Shown here one piece after another: positions 1-11,057 of a DNA stretch of 11,057 bases (positions within the stretch are counted from its first letter, which is position 1; every line of letters starts with the position of its first letter). The notes under the pieces were generated by a model. The model was not told the DNA's origin. It made no database searches and saw only the letters and a list, made by a program, of their open reading frames with translations. Origin of the DNA: a virus. The DNA lies in the UHGV virus genome UHGV-0152719; one strand, given 5' to 3'. The position numbers and the translations under genes were made by a program.

Positions 1-88
1 GCATACATCGCCTTTATGAAAAGACAGGAAAAGATAAAATTTAAAAACAGTACATTACGAATGCTCAGACCTATCGTTTAAAGGAGTC

Positions 89-110: not shown

Positions 111-1019
111 ATTATTTATAAGATGAGCGGCATCCGTCATAAAGCTGGTGGATGCTTTTTCTATGCATATATGCACAGTTTTAGTGGGCGTTAATGTCGA
201 TATAGGGATCCCCATATCGAGATTGGATACCTGGCTTTTTTCCGGTTAACCTTTAATCAGGCTGGTGGGCTTTACCTGTTTTGTATGAGCGGTCATCATG
301 ACCATGCCATAACAAAAACCCCATATTCGTGGGTTTTCTGTGTTGTGGCTATTCTGCCGTTGCCGTGCTGGTGGATATTTCCGGTATGTGGCTCACCATA
401 TCGGCATCAGGCCCACCAGCGTGAAGCGTTTTTCATTTTTCGCGGGTAAGCCCCAAAATCTGGGTGTTACTCTTACTACCCAAACTACGGGTAGTTTCCG
501 TAGTTTCTGGTCGAGTTGCAGATCTGCAACTCACCCACCAGCTAACCCATTTTTGGGCCGTCGGGAATATCAACCAGTTACTGCCAGTGATCTGGATGTT
601 CTGCAGTCTGGCTGGTGGCTGGACGCTGATTTTTTGCGTACCTGTATCGGTTTCGTATCCGGTGGATGTTCTGCGTACTTTTCAGAGGCGGATTTCCGCC
701 CACGCCATTCTGGACCAGTTGAAGGGGCCGAATACATCACCGGATTTAGGGGATGTTCCCGGCCTCCTCAATTTGAGGATTGTGGAAGAATCAATGGGTT
801 AGTCTTACTGTCCCTCATTTCCTGCATTGCAGGTTTTCGAAATAATCAATGGGTTAGGCCATCGTGCAATTTTGCACTTTGCCAGCCAGCGCAATGTTGC
901 GTTATCGGGAATATCAGCACGTTACCGGCTTTCGTCATGTTAAACACTGGCCAGGCATCGCCATTCTTATCAATAAAATCACCAGGCTCAAAATTGAGCT
1001 TTGCTTTAATCTCAGCAAG

Positions 1020-1304
1020 TTACCGCCGTAACCGTTCCGGCTTCTTCCACTGGTAAGTTTTTTTCTCGCTCTCCTGATACATCGCCACACGTCGACGGTA
1101 TGCCAGCAACTCTAATACCCTGGTTCGTATGTCGCGCATATCCACGCCGTTAAGATCGATACCGTCACAGCGCATCACCTCAGCCACCACACGCGCGTAA
1201 TTTTCAGCGGTGACGGTATCAGGCTGCATGGCCTCCTGTGTGCCAGCCTGCTGGCTGATTCCGGTAACGCGGCGGATTAATCCCAGTAGTTCGGCTTCTG
1301 TCAT
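1020..1304 (-). CDS. Hypothetical protein (94 aa), last gene of the packaging operon
   Basis: ORF directly downstream of the Nu1-like gene on the same strand; ATG at 1304; no recognisable family; weak Shine-Dalgarno. Confidence 0.45.
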   Translation of the reverse strand: MTEAELLGLIRRVTGISQQAGTQEAMQPDTVTAENYARVVAEVMRCDGIDLNGVDMRDIRTRVLELLAYRRRVAMYQESEKKTYQWKKPERLRR

Positions 1305-1315
1305 AGTGCGCTACG

Positions 1316-1858
1316 TTACTTGTCTTTATCCGGCTGAAACTTATCAGGCACATTTCCGGTAGTTTCCATCAGATAATCGGACAGTATTCGCGGGATGTTT
1401 TCATCAAGTTTTGTGCATGCGTTACAGGCTCTGACAACTTCCTTTTTAAGTCCATCCAGCATAGCGGGGGTAATCTGTGGGAAGCGCCTTTGCATGGTAA
1501 GCGGCAAACTGTCCATGATTGAAGAAATCTGACTCGCCAGTTTTGAAAGCACATATATACAAAATTCCGTACTAATAACGTCGCCGCGTTCGCGCTCGTT
1601 TTTAAGCTCCTGCGCCTCCGCCTGCGCTGTCAGCAATCTGATCCTGACTCGCAAAAGTTCATCATTATCAATCTCGCCTTTGTCGTCTGTAATCTGGTTA
1701 ATTGCATTGCTAACCCGATTGTCTATTACGCTGGCAACATCATAAAACGCCTCGCGGCCTTTACGTTCAACGGGAGTCACTCCCCACTTGTCGAACGCTG
1801 TCGCACTTACACGGCAGCTTTGCGCCATGTTTTTTTTGTTCATCAGGTACGATTTCAT
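1316..1858 (-). CDS. terS: Terminase small subunit, lambda Nu1-like
   Basis: C-terminal two thirds (LTAQAEAQELKNERERGDVISTEFCIYVLSKLASQISSIMDSLPLTMQRRFP...IPRILSDYL) closely parallels lambda gpNu1 (LTRAQADAQELKNARDSAEVVETAFCTFVLSRIAGEIASILDGLPLSVQRRFP...IPGLLSEYI); N-terminus (MNKK...FDKWGV...EAFYDVASVI) resembles the Nu1 winged-HTH more loosely. Start uncertain: GTG 1870, ATG 1858 (GGGGA SD-like upstream, chosen), ATG 1843 (aligns with Nu1 MEVNKK). Confidence 0.8.
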   Translation of the reverse strand: MKSYLMNKKNMAQSCRVSATAFDKWGVTPVERKGREAFYDVASVIDNRVSNAINQITDDKGEIDNDELLRVRIRLLTAQAEAQELKNERERGDVISTEFCIYVLSKLASQISSIMDSLPLTMQRRFPQITPAMLDGLKKEVVRACNACTKLDENIPRILSDYLMETTGNVPDKFQPDKDK

Positions 1859-1968
1859 CAATATCCCCACTTAAGTAATGTTTCAGGTTGGTGTGTTGGT
1901 GTTATCTTTCCCTTTTTATTCATAGAGATAGAGCGAAAAACAAAACCACCACCAGCACCCGAAAAAGG

Positions 1969-2012
1969 CTCATAAATAGCGAAAACCCGCGCGCCTTCCG
2001 CCCCGTAGCCTG
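1969..2012 (-). other. Lambda-like cos site (cosN-equivalent plus adjacent conserved flank), upstream of terS
   Basis: Minus strand reads caggctacg-gggcggaaggcg-cgcgggttttcgctatttatga; lambda cos as recalled is caggttacg-gggcggcgacct-cgcgggttttcgctatttatga. 22 contiguous nt identical downstream of cosN, left half of the 12-nt cosN identical, right half differs at 6 positions. Position (about 150 bp upstream of terS start) mirrors the lambda cos-Nu1 arrangement. Confidence 0.6.
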
Positions 2013-2059: not shown

Positions 2060-2443
2060 TCAACCAATCAACTTATAGCGACCATCCCGTGCATTGCGAC
2101 GTACACGCTCAATCTTGAGGCATAGCGCCGCATCTGGCTTTTTTGGGACAGGTACGCGGCAATATTCAGAAGATCGAGGAATATTGTTTATCCAGTCGAT
2201 CACTTCACTTAAATACCAGGCCTTACGCCCTTCCGTAACCTGTACGCGTTCGGGGAACTCTCCGCGAGCCTCAAGGTTTAGCAATGTGCGACGGCTAAGG
2301 GTAGTAAGTTCCATCACCTGATTCATATCAACAAGGCGTTCACTTAAACGCATTTTGTCAGCAATAGCCTTTAATTCCTCTACTGCTGGATCCGGATACA
2401 TCATTTCGGCAATTGGCTTAAGGTCATTGTAATGATTCTGCAT
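2060..2443 (-). CDS. AlpA-family (excisionase-like) helix-turn-helix DNA-binding protein, 127 aa
   Basis: Motif LTTLSRRTLLNLEARGEFPERVQVTEGRKAWYLSEVIDWI matches the AlpA/phage-excisionase HTH pattern (G-FP ... W..SEV..WI); ATG at 2443 preceded by AAGGGGGA Shine-Dalgarno. Confidence 0.6.
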   Translation of the reverse strand: MQNHYNDLKPIAEMMYPDPAVEELKAIADKMRLSERLVDMNQVMELTTLSRRTLLNLEARGEFPERVQVTEGRKAWYLSEVIDWINNIPRSSEYCRVPVPKKPDAALCLKIERVRRNARDGRYKLIG

Positions 2444-2454
2444 TGTATCCCCCT

Positions 2455-2796
2455 TTACACACGAGCCAGCGGCTGAACAGAAATACCTGAGCCAACAAAC
2501 GCGGCAACCTTTGCCGACAGTTCTTTTACAGACTCAGGCCAGTTCAGAGCATCAACATTTAAAACGCCTGTCTTATAAACCTGTGCCTGTGTTTTTTTCG
2601 CTGTGTCGATTTGTACAGCGGAAACATAAACCGCTTTACCTACGCTCGAACCATCCCATACCACCAGTGCACCTGTTGCATCTTCCTGCATCAGTGGCGT
2701 AAATGCAGGAATTACCCCTTTATTAGCTGAAAATATCCCCAGCGTAGTCACCAGTGCTTCAGTGCCAGCCATGAGTTCAGTGTAATGAGTAGCCAT
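2455..2796 (-). CDS. Head decoration protein, lambda gpD-like
   Basis: 113 aa; TPLMQEDATGALVVWDGSSVGKAV and NWPESVKELSAKVAAFVGSGISV parallel lambda gpD [24 protein letters not shown] and [33 protein letters not shown] Shine-Dalgarno before ATG at 2796. Confidence 0.8.
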   Translation of the reverse strand: MATHYTELMAGTEALVTTLGIFSANKGVIPAFTPLMQEDATGALVVWDGSSVGKAVYVSAVQIDTAKKTQAQVYKTGVLNVDALNWPESVKELSAKVAAFVGSGISVQPLARV

Positions 2797-2805
2797 TGCT
2801 CCCCC

Positions 2806-3852
2806 TTAGCCAATGCGAACGGTAACAAAACGATTGATGCGGGCCGGTATTGGCTGTGGTGCTGAATGTGTCTGCACATATTCAATAGCCGGATCACCAG
2901 GCACAATATAGTTTTTCGGTGCAAGTTCGGCTTTAGTCAGCCCCATTCGGATTAGCTCCGGATCCTGAATACCGCCATAGGCGACAATCCCCTGAAGAGC
3001 CGTATTGCCAAGCACCATCAAATCAGGATCAAGGAAATGTTTTTCAGTTCCGTCCTCGTCGGTATAACGCCCGCTGTATACAACAATCGCAACATCGCCC
3101 ATATACCCTTTAAAACTCACCGAATCACCAAGGTCTTTAAGAGCCGTTTCCAGTTCGGAATTAGAACCACGACGGGTATCCAGAGCCTCTTTTATCGCTC
3201 TGAATGAACGGTATTTCTTCCATACATTACCGCCCATAATGATGATATTAGTGACGCCCTCACTAAATTCTGCGTAGCTCTCAATATCATCATTTGGATC
3301 AAAAGTTTCTTTATCCTTACCTGACCACTCAGCACCGCCAGACTGAGTGATGATATTTTGTGGTTTAATATTCCAGTCCAGCTCATAACGTTCAATACCA
3401 TCGCCCTCAATGATATTTTTCCCCGTTGTGATTGCCTGAACGGCAAGCCATTCAATACGTGCACGAATAGCTTTAGCCTGATTTACAATCGCCTGTTTAA
3501 CTTTAATATTACGCGCTCCAAAAGCATTGTATTGCTCAGGTGATACACCAGCAGGGCGCACAGCTAACTTATTTGGATCAATGCTGCTTTTCGGCTTCAT
3601 ATAGCCTGGACGAATTGTTTTTGATTCGTACCCTTCGTCACGTGAAACTTTACTACCCACCATAGGAGAACAAAACGCTGCAATTGGGATATTTGGATCG
3701 TCGATTGTATCAAGAATAATATCGCGCGATTCAAACATTACCGAGCGAGTGAAAAACAAACTGGTAAACAACGCATTTAATTTTTTTTGCACATCTTCAG
3801 CATTAGCCACCTGCACAAGCTGTGTAGGCGAATATAAATCAACCATACTCAT
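2806..3852 (-). CDS. Major capsid protein, lambda gpE family
   Basis: Strong similarity to lambda gpE: NIITQSGGAEWSGKDKETFDPNDDIESYA ... RSFRAIKEALDTRRGSNSELETALKDLGDSVSFKGYMGDVAIVVYSGRY vs lambda NITQSGGTEWSKRDKSTYDPTDDIEAYA ... RSFKAVKEKLDTRRGSNSELETAVKDLGKAVSYKGMYGDVAIVVYSGQY. The ORF extends to 3933, but the MSMVDLY start (3852) matches the gpE N-terminus MSMYTT; the alternative ATG at 3846 has better SD spacing. Confidence 0.85.
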   Translation of the reverse strand: MSMVDLYSPTQLVQVANAEDVQKKLNALFTSLFFTRSVMFESRDIILDTIDDPNIPIAAFCSPMVGSKVSRDEGYESKTIRPGYMKPKSSIDPNKLAVRPAGVSPEQYNAFGARNIKVKQAIVNQAKAIRARIEWLAVQAITTGKNIIEGDGIERYELDWNIKPQNIITQSGGAEWSGKDKETFDPNDDIESYAEFSEGVTNIIIMGGNVWKKYRSFRAIKEALDTRRGSNSELETALKDLGDSVSFKGYMGDVAIVVYSGRYTDEDGTEKHFLDPDLMVLGNTALQGIVAYGGIQDPELIRMGLTKAELAPKNYIVPGDPAIEYVQTHSAPQPIPARINRFVTVRIG

Positions 3853-4063: not shown

Positions 4064-4486
4064 TTAAAACGGTATATTATCGCCGTACGGATCATCATTC
4101 CCCGACTGTTGTTTTGCCCTGTTCAGTGCGTCAGTGGCCTGCCCCTGCTGGCCTTTTTTGCCGCCCGGTCGCGCCGTTCGCGCACTGATTACGCTGTCTG
4201 CGATAACCTGCCAGCCCCGCCGCGTTTCGCCGTTCTGGCCTGTCCACTGGCTTACCTGCATGTTACCCGCCACGCTCACCAGTTCGCCTTTGTGGTGTTT
4301 TGCCAGTGCGTCGGCCTGTCTGCCAAACGCCAGGACGGATAACCACATCGTCGCCGTTCCGTCATCTGCCTGGCTGCACGGCAGGGGAACCGCCATACTC
4401 GCCATCGCCATTTGTGTCCCTTTGCTGGTGGTCTTTAACTGCGGGTCAGCCACCAGCCGCCCGTAAGCCGCTATCTGTGCTGTCAT
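4064..4486 (-). CDS. ssb: Single-stranded DNA-binding protein (SSB-like OB fold with acidic C-terminal IPF tip)
   Basis: WLSVLAFGRQADALAKHHKGELVSVAGNMQVSQWTGQNGETRRGWQVIADSV parallels E. coli SSB [52 protein letters not shown]; Gly/Gln-rich linker; C-terminus DDPYGDNIPF resembles the SSB DDDIPF tail. Start ATG overlaps the upstream gene's stop (ATGA). Confidence 0.7.
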   Translation of the reverse strand: MTAQIAAYGRLVADPQLKTTSKGTQMAMASMAVPLPCSQADDGTATMWLSVLAFGRQADALAKHHKGELVSVAGNMQVSQWTGQNGETRRGWQVIADSVISARTARPGGKKGQQGQATDALNRAKQQSGNDDPYGDNIPF

Positions 4487-4786: not shown

Positions 4787-5014
4787 CTCCTCTACCTCTC
4801 TACCTAATCATCTTTCAGGTCAGTAATGGCGCGGCTTTCAGATGGGTAGAGGGCTTTCGGGGCCCTCTACCCATCCTCTACCCGCCCCTCACAAATGACC
4901 TTAATCATGGTGGAGGAGGTAGAGGGCTTTTATTTGCCTTCTACCTGGCCCTCTACCTGCTTATCATATTGAATAATATATATTTATTTTCTTTAGGTAG
5001 AGGAGGTAGAGGGC
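4787..5014. repeat. Iteron array with AT-rich core: putative origin of replication
   Basis: Ten copies of an 8-bp motif in both orientations: CCTCTACC at 4789, 4864, 4875, 4950; variants TCTCTACC 4797 and TTCTACC 4939; GGTAGAGG at 4845, 4918, 4996, 5006; three carry the longer form GGTAGAGGGCTTT. AT-rich stretch 4958-4995. Sits immediately 3' of the primase-helicase gene. Confidence 0.65.
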
Positions 5015-5026
5015 TTTTGTCTAAAA

Positions 5027-6781
5027 TTATAAAAACGCGTCGCAATCCTCTGTTGTTGTCACATTGGTTTGCGTAAGTCCTTTAACCCTGCGCGTTATAT
5101 ATTCACATCCGTAAACTTTCGCCGCTGGCTTCATGGCCTTGCTGAAATCAGCCACGTTTAGCGGCTTGCTTCTGCCTGCGTATGCCATAAACGCCAGATA
5201 GACGCGGTAAAGGCTGTTTCTGGTCGTGTACTTCACGGAATCGCCACCGCCACCCATCATCAGGCCGCGCGCTTCCTCCAGAAAATTCAGAAACTGGCAA
5301 AACTCAATAACCGGATCCGTCTGTTGCTTTATCGCCAGTGCTTCTTCACCGTCGCGCTGTTCAATCAACAAATGTCGCGCCTTTTCTGGATCAGCAAAGT
5401 TTGCCAGCAATCTGCGGATAATCACGGGGATTTCAGCCGCGACCTTCTCCGGTAAATCCTTGTCCTTTTCTGCCTCGCTAACGATATTGTCGAAGCGGAA
5501 AATTACGCGACGACGTGACACACCTCCGGCCCGTTCGGTGAATATCATCGGGTTATTGTTGGTAGCCAGCACCACCGCCCTGATTACCGCCGTAAAACGC
5601 TTTTCATATTTCGGGTTTATTTCCACGGGGTCGCCGCCCGTGATTTTCTTGATGCCCGTGCCTTCGCCTGTATATTTCGGCTGGTCAGCCAGGACGATAA
5701 GACGACTCCCGACAACCTGAGCACGCCCACCAGCATCATCAAGCGAAGTCATTTCAGCGCTTACCGTGTTCTGTTTCCCTGCCAGAAGGCTGGCTATGTG
5801 CGTGAATGTACTCTTTCCGCTCCCGCCGTCTCCGGTGGCCTCAATAAACATCTGCCAGTCGTACCGGTTCGCCATAATCATGTACAGCGCGGCACATATA
5901 CGCATCATCTTGCGTGGGTCTTTTCCGGCTGCGTGATCAAGCCATTTATGAAAGTTTGGCGCGTTGTCGCGGATGTTCTCCCCTGGTGCTGGTGGCGTGT
6001 ACTCAATGCCGTTGTGCGTGGTGATCCAGTTCTCCGGCGAGTGCGGGGAAAATTCCCCCGTTTTCAGATTAAGCACACCATTAGTGAACGGTAGCAAATC
6101 GCCAGACGGCTCGCCCATTGGTTCGGCAATAACTTTTAACGCTTCCACGGCGTTATTGATTGCGCGCTTGCTGAAAGTGGCCCTGTGCTCTGAATAGATC
6201 GCCACCATTTCGCGGCTAAGTTCCATTGTGCTGACCGGACACCATACCCCGCCGCGCCATACGTGAACGATTTCACTTTCAGGATGTACGCAAACGCCAT
6301 CAAAGCGATCGGCAAGCAACTGCGCGCGCTCACTGTCCGCCATCTGCGAAAGTTGCGCCTTTTGCTTTACCGGAAGCTCAATGACCAGACCATCAGAAAG
6401 ATTCTGGCGTTCACGGGCCAGATATTCGCGCCAGTTCTGCACCTCCTGGCCGTGCATACCCTCAGGATAAAAATTTGCATCCTGTACGCCTGCTGCCGCC
6501 AGCTTCTGACCAATCGCCTTTATCATTACAGGCGCAAGATATCCGGCCCTGTATATGCGTGCTGATTTTCGGCCTTCCGGCACAATTTGCAGATTATCCA
6601 GTTCGGATAGCTGCTGCTCCCCAAGCCACACAGGAGGCTCATTATCTCCGGCCATACGCGCATCATGTTCCTGCCATTGTTTCGCGTGTGCCCAGGCATC
6701 ACTACCCGCAAAAATAATGACTTCTGTTCCTTTGTGTTTTATGCCGCGTGACTGCTGTTTTACGTTCGGTGCCAGTTTCAT
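5027..6781 (-). CDS. Primase-helicase, phage/plasmid P4-alpha-like (Walker A GDGGSGKS)
   Basis: 584-aa ORF; Walker A motif TGDGGSGKST followed by helicase-like region; N-terminal primase-like portion; typical P4/PICI pri-rep size and position next to iterons; start ATG overlaps upstream gene stop. Confidence 0.85.
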   Translation of the reverse strand: MKLAPNVKQQSRGIKHKGTEVIIFAGSDAWAHAKQWQEHDARMAGDNEPPVWLGEQQLSELDNLQIVPEGRKSARIYRAGYLAPVMIKAIGQKLAAAGVQDANFYPEGMHGQEVQNWREYLARERQNLSDGLVIELPVKQKAQLSQMADSERAQLLADRFDGVCVHPESEIVHVWRGGVWCPVSTMELSREMVAIYSEHRATFSKRAINNAVEALKVIAEPMGEPSGDLLPFTNGVLNLKTGEFSPHSPENWITTHNGIEYTPPAPGENIRDNAPNFHKWLDHAAGKDPRKMMRICAALYMIMANRYDWQMFIEATGDGGSGKSTFTHIASLLAGKQNTVSAEMTSLDDAGGRAQVVGSRLIVLADQPKYTGEGTGIKKITGGDPVEINPKYEKRFTAVIRAVVLATNNNPMIFTERAGGVSRRRVIFRFDNIVSEAEKDKDLPEKVAAEIPVIIRRLLANFADPEKARHLLIEQRDGEEALAIKQQTDPVIEFCQFLNFLEEARGLMMGGGGDSVKYTTRNSLYRVYLAFMAYAGRSKPLNVADFSKAMKPAAKVYGCEYITRRVKGLTQTNVTTTEDCDAFL

Positions 6782-8710: not shown

Positions 8711-9289
8711 TCACTGAATGCGGTTACCAAAGTAAAACTCAGGCTGATATTCACGTATCAGCCTTTTTTCTTCTTCCTCCAGCTCACGCTTTTTGCGCTT
8801 ACATGCCTGTAGCTCCCTCCCCTTCTCGCTGGCACTTATTTGATATTGCTCTTTACGGCGGGAAAAATCCTGTAATGCACCCCACGGGATACCATAAGCC
8901 CCCGTTTTTCTGATACCTGGTATCACATTTCTGAATACCCAGTTACTGAAACGATGAGCAAATGTGCCCGGCGTCGTTGCTTTGCGGCTGCGGGCTATTA
9001 GTTTGTAGAAACCTGACTCAGAGATAATTCTCATATTCTGATTTCCTCCTGGGGTGTAAGTTAAATTTACTCCCTTTTCATCATCATCAAGCATCTGCAA
9101 CGCCGTACGCGAATTGGTTAGTTCCAGCGCAGCACAAACATCTTTTGCAACAAACCACGGATCGCCGTTCAGATACACCACACGAACGTTCACACTATCA
9201 AAGCGCAGAACGACGAGATCACGAATATCGCAGAATTTTTTCACTGGACGAGCGTACCCCTTGCCCGTCACGGCAATATTTTTATTCAT
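8711..9289 (-). CDS. Bro-N domain protein (phage antirepressor-like), 192 aa
   Basis: N-terminal region VVLRFDSVNVRVVYLNGDPWFVAKDVCAALEL...LQMLDDDEKGV matches the Bro-N/antirepressor N-terminal domain pattern; C-terminal charged coiled-coil-like tail. Confidence 0.75.
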   Translation of the reverse strand: MNKNIAVTGKGYARPVKKFCDIRDLVVLRFDSVNVRVVYLNGDPWFVAKDVCAALELTNSRTALQMLDDDEKGVNLTYTPGGNQNMRIISESGFYKLIARSRKATTPGTFAHRFSNWVFRNVIPGIRKTGAYGIPWGALQDFSRRKEQYQISASEKGRELQACKRKKRELEEEEKRLIREYQPEFYFGNRIQ

Positions 9290-9345: not shown

Positions 9346-9603
9346 TTATTGCTGTTTTGTTTTTCCAGGTTTCCATCCAGGATGCCACTCACCACGGATC
9401 CATGCCTGAACCTCTGAAAGTCGATACCCTGCAGCACGTTCACCGATCTTGATACGTCGCGGGAATTTACCTGCCTGCTCCATTTTCCAGCGTGTTGAGT
9501 TTGCCAGCGTGGTAAGTGCTATGCACTCTTTTTCACGAATGAACCGATCAATGTCCTTCATTGTGCGCAAATCGTTTTCATCAACAAGAGAATAAATTGC
9601 CAT
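9346..9603 (-). CDS. alpA: AlpA-family transcriptional regulator / excisionase-like protein
   Basis: 85 aa with HTH IALTTLANSTRWKMEQAGKFPRRIKIGERAAGYRLSEVQAWI typical of AlpA (prophage CP4-57 regulatory protein family); AAGAGG SD; immediately downstream of the integrase. Confidence 0.8.
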   Translation of the reverse strand: MAIYSLVDENDLRTMKDIDRFIREKECIALTTLANSTRWKMEQAGKFPRRIKIGERAAGYRLSEVQAWIRGEWHPGWKPGKTKQQ

Positions 9604-9604
9604 A

Positions 9605-10846
9605 TCACACCACCTCTTTATTAAGCTCGATAACGTTGTTGTTAAATCCTGCTATCGTATTAAGGTAATTAACCCACATATTAAGCACCTCAAGTTTTTT
9701 CTTTATATGCCTGCTTTTATTGTAAACACCAGCAACCCCTTTCACTTTATGACCTAAAAGAAGTTCGACAATATAAGGATCCGCCCCCATATCATTAAGC
9801 GTAGTGGAAAATGTGCGCCTGAAATCATGTATGCACCACAAGCCATTAGTATCATGACCAAGACGCCTGCATATTCTGTTTGCAGCCCCTGTTATTGTCG
9901 CCCTTTGCAAAGCACAACCGACAACATAACCGCAATTTTTTGTTTCTGCGTAAAGATTAACGATCCATTGTTTTATTCCGTCAGGAACAGGCCTTACTAT
10001 AGCCTCCTTGTTTTTGCTGTGCTCTTTTGGGACTGTCCATACCCAGTTTTTTAAATCCCATTCGTCCCAGGTGGATAGCCTCGCCTCCTGCTGTCGGCAA
10101 CCAAACACCAGGCAGATAACCATTATTCTTCGGTTATATATTGATGACAGAGTTAGCAAATTATTACCGTAAGCATAAGACCATACATCAGCGGTTTCAT
10201 TGATATTAAGAACGCGATCCCTTATACCGGATGAGCGCCCGACATAACTTACGTTAATATCTCCAAAGGGATCGCACGCGATGTATTGCCTGACGCGACA
10301 AAAACGCAACGCCTGTTTGATATCAAGAAAAATTGCACCAGACATAACAGGCGCATTTTTTTTGATCCTGTCAAAGACGGTAAGCCATGTGTGTAATTTG
10401 CACTGTTCTATAGCCATATCACCGATATAGGGGAAGATATGCTTTTCAAATCGTTTTATTAAATATTCATGCTCTTTTCTGGCTGTTGTGGCGTGATTGT
10501 CGTACCAGTAAAACAGCGCATCCCTTACGGTCACTGGTTGCATAGTTTTTTCGGCAGCAAGTTTTATTTGCCTGCGGGGGTCCAGATTTTCAGCCAGCCA
10601 TTCACGGCACTGATCACGCATGCGCCTGGCCGTTGCAAGAGACATGTCAGGATAGCGACCAAGTGTAAGCCATACCGGAGGGGATTCCCTGCCACCAAGA
10701 CGATAGTAAAAAACAAAGCTGATCCCCCCAACCATGCTTACACGCACAGACAACCCGCGCCCATCCGCTATTGTTTTTTGTTTGTCCTGCCGTTTTCCGA
10801 CAAGACTCTTTAACAGTTTGTCACTGAGTTTGTTTTCAATAGCCAT
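9605..10846 (-). CDS. int: Tyrosine site-specific integrase, P4-type
   Basis: 413 aa; N-terminal P4-integrase-like arm-binding region (MAIENKLSDKLLKSL...GRGLSVRV); catalytic-domain motifs including HDFRRTFST and the GVAGVYNKS tyrosine region; GAGGG SD upstream. Confidence 0.9.
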   Translation of the reverse strand: MAIENKLSDKLLKSLVGKRQDKQKTIADGRGLSVRVSMVGGISFVFYYRLGGRESPPVWLTLGRYPDMSLATARRMRDQCREWLAENLDPRRQIKLAAEKTMQPVTVRDALFYWYDNHATTARKEHEYLIKRFEKHIFPYIGDMAIEQCKLHTWLTVFDRIKKNAPVMSGAIFLDIKQALRFCRVRQYIACDPFGDINVSYVGRSSGIRDRVLNINETADVWSYAYGNNLLTLSSIYNRRIMVICLVFGCRQQEARLSTWDEWDLKNWVWTVPKEHSKNKEAIVRPVPDGIKQWIVNLYAETKNCGYVVGCALQRATITGAANRICRRLGHDTNGLWCIHDFRRTFSTTLNDMGADPYIVELLLGHKVKGVAGVYNKSRHIKKKLEVLNMWVNYLNTIAGFNNNVIELNKEVV

Positions 10847-10864
10847 TAAAAGCCCTCAAGAGAT

Positions 10865-10918
10865 TTGCAATACACACCCACCCCGATCGCCAATTTGCAA
10901 TACACATTGCAATACACA
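10865..10918. repeat. Three direct copies of TTGCAATACACA motif upstream of int (partner of 89-110 repeats)
   Basis: ttgcaatacacac 10865-10877, ttgcaatacaca 10895-10906, ttgcaatacacaaa 10907-10920; same motif and orientation as the two copies at 89-110; candidate att-arm / recombination-directionality or int-promoter operator sites. Confidence 0.5.
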
Positions 10919-11057
10919 AAACCGCGAAAAACTGGAAAGGTGATGAACGGTCATCAAAAGCATGGAAAACGACATTCCAGACGCAGCAAGGGTTTCAGTG
11001 GAGTTGGCGAACGATGCGGGCAACTACGGTGAGATGATAGACATAAATCGCCTTCAC

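Follow-up and report, generated by a model that had tools for sequence, protein, structure and literature searches.

A putative mosaic cos site with a satellite-specific cosB beside a Nu1-family small terminase gene in a helper-embedded phage satellite

Introduction

A cos site that combines phage-like cosQ and cosN signals with a different cosB has been established since 2018-2019 for EcCICFT073, a phage-inducible chromosomal island (PICI) (PMC6092414, PMC6739421), and the current picture for the Gram-negative cos-type PICIs is the 'one-shot' mechanism of the Rpp proteins. Variation in the right half of cosN has been documented for even longer, since 2015 (PMC4669245), and terS homologues, genes for small terminases (TerS), were noted in some Gram-negative PICIs in 2018 (PMC6092414). 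Here we describe the cos region of UHGV-0152719, a complete metagenome scaffold of 11,057 bp (ENA ERZ28666412, scaffold_1203; all of it is called the window below), in which a lambda-like cos site is followed by the gene for a TerS of the Nu1 family.

We consider it rather likely that positions 2033-1859 of the minus strand form a working mosaic cos, in which cosQ, cosN and spacer of the lambda type are joined to a cosB belonging to the satellite, and in which the satellite's own Nu1-family TerS recruits the large terminase (TerL) of a helper phage. In the searchable literature we found no description of a family of cos-type satellites that has, instead of Rpp, a Nu1 homologue of full length with its own sites at the R3 and R2 positions, nor of the overhang allele present here, which is changed at five of the six right-half positions, nor of the breadth with which such alleles are shared by phages and satellites behind one TerL.

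Results

A lambda-like cosQ, cosN and spacer

The lambda reference was NC_001416, of which both genome ends were fetched and joined, and positions at the site are numbered from the first base of the overhang (bp 1, window 2003, minus strand). On this strand the window reads GGGTCCTTTCCGGCGATCCGGCAGGCTACG, GGGCGGAAGGCG and CGCGGGTTTTCGCTATTTATGA in succession where lambda reads GGGTCCTTTCCGGTGATCCGACAGGTTACG, GGGCGGCGACCT and CGCGGGTTTTCGCTATTTATGA, and from 2033 to 1970 it aligns to the lambda cos junction without gaps. In the ungapped comparison, identity to lambda was distributed as follows:

bp -60 to -31: 9 of 30 positions identical
bp -30 to -1: 27 of 30 positions identical
bp 1 to 12 (overhang): 7 of 12 positions identical
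bp 13 to 34: 22 of 22 positions identical
bp 35 to 145: 49 of 111 positions identical

When compared by BLAST with 50,697 phage records, the site matched lambda-type cos sites at E = 3e-14 and two phages carrying the altered overhang allele at E = 1e-25; the cos match is therefore far beyond chance. The parts of the site and the gene next to it are these:

2027-2033 (bp -30 to -24), minus strand: cosQ, GGGTCCT, the packaging-termination signal, identical to that of lambda and at the same distance from cosN
1990-2005, minus strand: cosN, consisting of a predicted 12-nt 5' overhang GGGCGGAAGGCG (window 2003-1992) with CG on each side, assigned by homology to NC_001416
1970-1991 (bp 13-34), minus strand: conserved spacer CGCGGGTTTTCGCTATTTATGA, 22/22 identical to lambda
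1859-1969 (bp 35-145), minus strand: satellite-specific cosB, defined by an alignment of 18 distinct relatives
1316-1858, minus strand: small terminase of the satellite, Nu1 family (PF07471), 180 aa, with its start codon at bp 146

The function of cosQ is known from lambda genetics (PMC4669245, PMC6739421), and the GGGTCCT motif was invariant in 18 of 18 distinct satellite relatives. The left half of cosN, GGGCGG, is identical to that of lambda, and the right half differs at bp 7, 8, 9, 10 and 12, C11 being common to both. A CG dinucleotide flanks each of the predicted nicks (CG/GGGCGGAAGGCG/CG), the positions of which we infer by homology, and the pattern fits the published definition of a lambda-like cohesive end in that it is related to GGGCGGCGACCT with all differences lying within bp 7-12 (PMC4669245). 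The spacer is the last segment that phages and satellite have in common, and divergence starts at bp 35. A scan for promoters and terminators returned nothing informative in the cos region.

A first-pass annotation, made from the sequence alone, had placed a lambda-like cos site with a conserved flank at 1969-2012 and had named alignment to reference lambdoid genomes, lambda among them, as one check. The alignment to NC_001416 bears it out: the lambda sequence that it used was correct, the similarity is significant (27/30, 7/12 and 22/22 in the three segments from bp -30 to +34), and both the 22 contiguous identical bases on the cosB-proximal side and the unchanged left half of cosN are as described. 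The interval itself is a real match but stops short, the similarity extending further upstream to cosQ at 2033-2027, and what had been counted as six consecutive right-half differences are five. Repeats peculiar to the downstream region had also been reported; the sequence does depart from lambda after bp 34, but of 'caccaacacaccaacc' only the 3' part is conserved in the 18 relatives.

A putative cosB of the satellite's own

Two blocks within bp 35-145 are invariant in the 18 distinct relatives, TGGTGGTGGTTTTGTT at bp 50-65 (window 1954-1939) and ACACCAACCTGAA at bp 110-122 (window 1894-1882), and they occupy the places of R3 (bp 50-65) and of the inverted R2 (bp 109-124) in lambda. It appears that the two principal TerS sites have kept their positions and have had their sequences replaced. 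The R3-I1-R2-R1 arrangement with a site for integration host factor (IHF) that characterises a lambda-type cosB was not found, as bp 35-145 hold no lambda R consensus, and there is no room for R1 because the TerS start codon lies at bp 146 (bp 191 in lambda).

Trinucleotide repeats were seen at the R3 position in more than one kind of satellite. The TerS-type cosB has (GGT)3, GGTGGTGGT, at bp 51-59 (window 1945-1953), and the Rpp-type PICI L065 has the reverse complement (ACC)3, ACCACCACC, four bp further on at bp 55-63. A third type of satellite cosB, found in L127, L093 and L046, carries GGTTGTTGTTT and is accompanied by a TerS-like protein that is 47% identical.

A full-length Nu1 homologue downstream of cos

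The gene directly downstream had been called Nu1-like from its translation, and database comparison agrees. The protein matches Pfam PF07471 with E = 8.8e-24 and 84.4 bits (cut-off 30), and it aligns by BLASTP with lambda Nu1 at 37% identity (E = 4e-36, residues 6-166 against 3-180), with the C-terminal region included. Its C-terminus is of the DELIPGLLSEYIEQS type, LDENIPRILSDYLMET being aligned with LDELIPGLLSEYIEQS of Nu1, and this segment is similar to the gpA (TerL)-binding part of Nu1. The TerL-binding domain has been assigned to the last 40 residues of TerS, and it is proposed that Rpps are without such a domain (Murialdo and Feiss, PMC9026076). The central region is highly similar to Nu1 (RLLTAQAEAQELKN... 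against RLTRAQADAQELKN...), and the N-terminal ~60 residues are diverged and shortened. The first ATG is backed by conservation of the N-terminus in homologues from Enterobacter and Citrobacter. A structural model of moderate confidence has a strand-helix-helix-hairpin-helix succession at residues 5-56, with blocks of pLDDT 70-83 (predicted local distance difference test), and a winged helix-turn-helix (HTH) is predicted on this basis for the N-terminus. Where a source gives a TerS homologue a name, it is terminase or terminase small subunit.

Outside the window, small terminases that are natural chimeras, 194 aa long, were also observed (P0101, P0103 and P0105, with P0103 on 107 contigs). In these the N-terminal DNA-binding half is phage-type (MKVNKKRLAEIF...) and the C-terminal half is near-identical to the satellite TerS, the junction falling at the conserved motif AQA(D/E)AQELKN. 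Their composition suggests that modules for DNA specificity and for TerL binding have been swapped between phages and satellites.

The conservation of the module bears on whether it is in use at all. A cos-like sequence and a TerS gene left over from a prophage late region, with no role in the transfer of the satellite, would be in keeping with the known capture of helper late genes by helper-embedded PICIs (PMC10111431). We regard such a relic as very improbable. The 18 relatives show no change in cosQ, in the flanks of the nicks, in the left half of cosN, in the spacer or in either cosB block, while neighbouring positions vary; the TerS open reading frame (ORF) is intact and conserved in 178 homologues; 284 of the 5426 complete genomes of E. 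coli carry the satellite cos region with this module; and the equivalent site of EcCICFT073 was experimentally required for transfer (PMC6092414, PMC6739421).

How the mosaic site may be used

In the mechanism that we propose, the segment from bp -30 to +34 (cosQ, cosN and spacer) would be the TerL part of the site, used by lambda-like helpers, and bp 35-145 would be the part of the satellite TerS. The 180-aa protein would bind this private cosB through its diverged N-terminal winged HTH, the likely contacts being the invariant blocks at bp 50-65 and bp 110-122 at the lambda R3 and R2 positions, and its lambda-like C-terminal region would recruit the gpA-type TerL of the helper, probably directly. 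TerL would then nick at the conserved CG-flanked positions and leave the overhang GGGCGGAAGGCG, the right half of which would be neutral for nicking and one of several natural alleles of bp 7-12.

The main rival, which we hold to be unlikely, is an Rpp-like mode of action. Here the TerS would form hetero-oligomers with the helper Nu1 that read the satellite cosB and not the phage cosB, the helper TerS would be essential, and one protein would both redirect packaging and interfere with the helper, as Rpp does in EcCICFT073. This mechanism is experimentally established in related islands (PMC6739421), and the TerS gene occupies the slot that rpp has in Rpp-type PICIs (capsid E, D, cos, X, orf94). 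Moreover the central region of the TerS is close to lambda Nu1, so that co-assembly is plausible, and the natural chimeras, with their phage-type N-terminal domain and satellite-type C-terminal half, show that the modules are compatible. The protein itself, however, does not look like an Rpp. It has 180 aa, against 135-153 aa in Rpps, its start codon lies at bp 146 and not at bp 102, it has no BLASTP similarity at E <= 10 to the 144-aa RppA-like protein of the Rpp-type PICI L065, and RppC was not among its matches in the PDB. It also retains the C-terminal TerL-binding-like segment, the absence of which is the proposed cause of the need of Rpp for helper TerS (PMC9026076).

A number of observations nevertheless weigh against the mosaic cos proposed here. 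The TerS model has a mean pLDDT of 66 and a pTM (predicted template modelling score) of 0.31, the N-terminal blocks at 70-83 being its better part; a Foldseek search of the PDB with this model gave nothing at E <= 0.001, its top matches, MerR-type winged HTHs at E ~0.1-1, being suggestive only, and a sequence search of the PDB gave chance matches only and recovered neither the Nu1 DNA-binding domain nor Rpp (RppC). In the DNA, no IHF consensus was found in 1859-1969, including between the blocks, and the total for the whole window was below chance expectation; a repeat finder run on 1840-2060 returned short repeats at chance level, with no significant repeat or inverted pair; and the two cosB blocks are inverted copies of each other in a loose sense only. 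None of the GenBank phage records in the collection begins at the GGGCGGAAGGCG overhang, so that for this allele the nick sites of the phages are placed by inference as well. Finally, mixed oligomers with the helper TerS are possible, and may even be required, as the central oligomerisation region is very similar to that of Nu1.

The overhang allele in phages and satellites

Two lambda-like phages, YDC107_1 and PhiR46_1, are identical to the window over bp -30 to +34 (64/64), overhang allele included, and downstream of bp 34 they continue with a lambda-type cosB and then a lambda-like Nu1. The same right half, AAGGCG, was found at 67 phage-type loci of IMG/VR in the full pattern scan, and 155 of the 5426 complete genomes of E. 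coli hold this allele. The altered right half is a natural allele common to phages and satellites and not a satellite adaptation, because the same allele occurs in the identical 64-bp block of ordinary lambda-like phages.

The frequencies of the alleles differed widely. Among the matches listed by the IMG/VR pattern scan, the overhang right halves were CGACCT (at least 101), AAGGCG (at least 13), CAGCGG (at least 4) and CAGGCG (at least 1), and the 91 IMG/VR loci with satellite-type sequence after bp 34 had CGACCT (78), AGACCT (5), AAGGCG (4), CAGACG (3) and CTGACG (1). The right halves encountered altogether were CGACCT, AGACCT, AAGGCG, CAGGCG, CAGACG, CTGACG, CAGCGG and CGTCCG. By these counts the combination of allele and satellite cosB seen in the window is uncommon and not unique. 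A literature search for the overhang string returned one unrelated plant paper only, and no paper describing the PhiR phages was found.

The nearest satellite relative, L068, is identical to the window at 60 of 60 positions upstream and at 104 of 111 downstream (bp 35-145), and over bp -60 to +34 all 7 differences lie in bp 7-18, five of them in the overhang and two in bp 13-18. Since the differences are confined to this interval, a short imported patch is indicated, and the overhang allele was probably acquired in a patch of at most 64 bp from a phage that carried it. More generally, the alleles appear to move as patches of no more than 64 bp, the window being, by this comparison, a satellite-phage-satellite mosaic exactly around cosN.

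Recombination at cos may also have taken another form. The satellites of L128 and L132 share their integrase, capsid, decoration and AlpA genes with the window; at L128:18690-19000 and L132:11950-12300 they carry a phage-type cosB (lambda R3 onward) and no TerS gene, with the orf94 homologue still downstream, and their overhangs are GGGCGTCAGGCG in L128 and GGGCGGAAGGCG in L132. We take them as evidence for satellite-phage recombination at cos. The satellite cos of L128 (~18760) also has GGGCGT as its left half, against the otherwise invariant GGGCGG, a change in that half of cosN on which selection is believed to act. A further type of cos was seen in the helper prophage at L129:6060-6330, where the overhang is GGGCGGCGTCCG and CGCAGATTCTCGC comes next, with a different cosB; this helper with the GGGCGGCGTCCG cos hosts a satellite that carries the lambda allele.

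TerL and helper matching

For the comparison of TerL with the allele, sequences were taken from those loci that reached far enough, which within the lambda-type clade gave 7 sequences beside AAGGCG and 19 beside CGACCT. The TerL of AAGGCG phages was 98.6-99.8% identical to that of phages with the lambda allele, and 0 of the 32 variable columns segregated with the allele in this set of 7 against 19. A TerL that co-varies with the overhang allele is rejected on this result. At least eight bp 7-12 alleles would circulate among lambda-like phages and satellites with essentially identical TerL.

Published work is in line with a neutral right half. Differences in bp 7-12 have been called 'common' among lambda-like phages, with N15 and phiD326 differing at 9 and 12 and Gifsy-1 at 8, 9 and 11 (Feiss et al. 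2015, PMC4669245); right-half variants are efficiently nicked by the lambda TerL, and changes in bp 7-12 leave cleavage unaffected (PMC4669245). Neither the lambda nor the N15 terminase has a specificity for cosN, and selection is reported to act on cosQ, on the left half of cosN and on the flanking CG pairs (PMC4669245). The endonuclease centres of TerL are described as not highly sequence-specific and as dependent on the anchoring of TerS to cosB (Murialdo and Feiss, PMC9026076).

Composites in which a satellite and its resident helper can both be read gave a mixed outcome. The two carry the same allele in GPEC1031, in L130 and in IMG/VR contig 3300029613_000327. They differ in L129 (CGTCCG in the helper, CGACCT in the satellite), in L128 (CGACCT in the helper, GGGCGTCAGGCG in the satellite) and in IMG/VR contig 2923302340_000009 (AAGGCG in the helper, CGACCT in the satellite). 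In L145 and L180, two large contigs with AAGGCG satellites, a scan for phage-type cos sites of the AAGGCG allele found none. The requirement that a satellite's cosN allele match that of its helper was rejected on these data, with three composites that match and at least three that do not, and embedded satellites and resident helpers often carry different alleles.

These results largely refute an allele-matched hijack, in which the altered right half of cosN ties the satellite to helpers with a TerL that cuts GGGCGGAAGGCG or with ends that anneal with it, and we now give it very little credence. The 64/64 identity of bp -30 to +34 to YDC107_1 and PhiR46_1 suggests contact with such phages, and the five changes do cluster in 6 bp with flanks that are otherwise identical, as such a tie would have it. 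Against this stand the absence of any TerL column that segregates with the allele (0/32), the mismatched pairs in L129, L128 and one IMG/VR contig, the AAGGCG satellites on L145 and L180 where the scan found no phage-type cos of that allele, and the reports that the lambda and N15 terminases lack cosN specificity and that changes in bp 7-12 are harmless to cleavage (PMC4669245). Moreover one concatemer supplies both ends of a packaged molecule, so that circularisation needs no match with the helper.

For the first-pass annotation the consequences are twofold. It had a helper TerL cutting at cosN and the island's TerS reading a private cosB, and the comparison backs this architecture; its emphasis on the altered right half as a noteworthy feature of the satellite was misplaced, given that ordinary phages have the same allele, TerL does not co-vary with it and bp 7-12 are neutral in published work.

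It is conceivable, but in our judgement improbable, that bp 7-12 act as a small, horizontally exchanged 'sticky-end barcode'. If the diversity of alleles is selected, it could block annealing between the ends of co-replicating phage and satellite or of competing phage genomes, or it could serve as an escape from some factor, of host or satellite, by which cos ends are recognised. Such a barcode, if true, would be a new layer of packaging or compatibility specificity, independent of both TerS and TerL.

The satellite that carries the site

The window is one whole helper-embedded PICI of ~11 kb, a phage satellite of the kind described by Tommasini et al., as judged from the scaffold ends at att cores, the relatives in portal genes and the gene set. 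By Pfam domains the latter comprises int, AlpA, Bro-N, primase, SSB (single-stranded DNA-binding protein), capsid E, D, a further AlpA, cos and TerS, with the main genes all on the minus strand:

9605-10846, minus strand: tyrosine integrase
9346-9603, minus strand: AlpA
8711-9289, minus strand: Bro-N protein
5027-6781, minus strand: D5-type primase
4064-4486, minus strand: SSB
2806-3849, minus strand: satellite copy of a lambda E-type major capsid gene (PF03864, E = 5e-41), upstream of cos
2455-2796, minus strand: satellite copy of a lambda D-type head decoration gene (PF02924, E = 4.1e-15), upstream of cos
2060-2443, minus strand: second AlpA-type HTH gene (PF05930, E = 1.3e-08), the upstream bound of the cos intergenic region
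1020-1304, minus strand: conserved 94-aa ORF (orf94) with no assigned function, directly downstream of TerS

An integrase, AlpA, Bro, primase and replication genes and a late zone, a size within ~10-15 kb, a site in prophage late genes and co-orientation with them are the marks of a PICI and of its helper-embedded form, and all were found. The cos intergenic region is 190 bp long, and the stop codon of the AlpA-type HTH gene that bounds it lies 27 bp ahead of cosQ. The 94-aa ORF had no family match in Pfam or PADLOC, and its homologues, 70-81% identical, lie downstream of cos in satellites of the TerS type, in those of the Rpp type and in those that have no TerS.

The closest relative in a complete genome, in E. 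coli GPEC1031, is 95.5% identical across 93% of the window and splits a lambdoid portal gene, adjoining W, A and Nu1. A 100% identical integrase was found in elements within the lambdoid portal genes of several assemblies, co-oriented with the late operon and cos of the helper. The scaffold ends carry imperfect att cores, CATACATCGCCTT and CATAAATCGCCTT. Specifically, the scaffold starts and stops at these cores (window 1-20, GCATACATCGCCTT..., and 11040-11057, ...GACATAAATCGCCTTCAC), with ~15-17 nt of portal gene on each side, and the assembly probably broke there on account of occupied and empty (or excised) forms both being present in the sample.

Other observations concern the two ends of the satellite and its replication genes. 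At the far end from the integrase, a 222-aa ORF lies on the opposite strand (388-1056, plus strand), where the window is least conserved in GPEC1031; neither it nor the other unannotated ORFs of the right end had a match in Pfam or PADLOC. The same region holds two pairs of imperfect direct repeats of 38-44 nt (538-581 with 882-925, and 765-802 with 820-857), one of which consists of a short hairpin and then AATCAATGGGTTAG, fitting the IHF consensus, and it could represent either an accessory gene or an arm region of attP. Near the att core and just upstream of the integrase gene, 10863-10918 hold three copies of ATTTGCAATACACA (two exact and one 86% identical), which may be arm-type sites for binding of the integrase or else the doubled attP motif of which Tommasini et al. 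speak. A long hairpin stands directly 3' of the primase gene (4934-5016, plus strand), and replication origins of PICIs have been reported in the region 3' of that gene. An Rfam scan of the whole window found no relevant RNA family, the hairpin giving two sub-threshold matches to microRNA models.

Discussion

Implications

The findings on the satellite cos site do not overturn existing models. A Nu1-type TerS with its own cosB in the slot of rpp suggests a second strategy by which a lambda-like terminase may be hijacked, closer to the replacement of TerS practised by the Staphylococcus aureus pathogenicity islands (SaPIs). The locus is also a natural test of the indifference of TerL to the right half of cosN, with several phage and satellite alleles behind one TerL. 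Moreover it defines the cos, and the ends to be expected, of a widespread class of E. coli satellites, which can be used in annotation, in helper prediction and in cos-based delivery vehicles.

Comparison with known systems

The helper-embedded PICIs (Tommasini, Mageeney and Williams 2023) have the same four zones as the window (integration, Bro, replication and late), the same portal-gene site and the same orientation with the late operon. In that paper cos is mentioned in passing only, with a terS-less satellite that has a 258-bp cos-like segment in common with its helper (PMC10111431), and a private cosB, a Nu1-type TerS and cosN alleles are not discussed.

With lambda itself the site shares cosQ at -30, a CG-flanked 12-nt overhang with GGGCGG, identical bp 13-34, blocks at the R3 and R2 positions and a TerS gene immediately downstream. 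It differs from lambda in having no lambda R sequences, no recognisable IHF site and no R1, in a TerS start at bp 146 against bp 191, and in the overhang changes at bp 7, 8, 9, 10 and 12. The cosN variants of N15, phiD326 and Gifsy-1 likewise vary in bp 7-12 only, with the left half, CG flanks and cosQ kept and no matching change in TerL, but the window allele, with five of six right-half positions changed, goes further than these published examples.

The cos1 of EcCICFT073, read by Rpp (Fillol-Salom et al. 2018, 2019; Murialdo and Feiss 2022), is alike in its lambda-like cosQ and cosN, in their correct spacing, in a cosB unrelated to that of the helper and in its place just upstream of the gene whose product reads it. 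Both also have one and the same late module, with E-type capsid and D-type decoration (genes c1499 and c1500 in EcCICFT073; PMC6092414), cos, specificity gene and orf94, and a core of trinucleotide repeats lies at the R3 position both in the window and in an Rpp-type locus, in opposite orientations. The specificity proteins differ: that of the window is homologous to Nu1 over its full length (180 aa, PF07471), has a TerL-binding-like region at its C-terminus and has no BLAST similarity to the RppA-like protein, and its gene starts at bp 146, whereas rpp starts at bp 102 in L065, as in the literature. The cosN of EcCICFT073 has moreover been described as identical to that of phage 4, by which it is induced, and as similar to the cosN of lambda and phi80, whereas the overhang of the window differs from lambda.

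Pac-type SaPIs with a TerS of their own use a satellite TerS homologue together with the helper TerL and redirect packaging to their own site, which is the strategy proposed here for the window. The SaPI TerS proteins serve headful (pac) packaging and are unrelated to Nu1; the system of the window, in contrast, would be of the cos type, with defined cohesive ends and with cosN and cosQ shared with the phages that it exploits.

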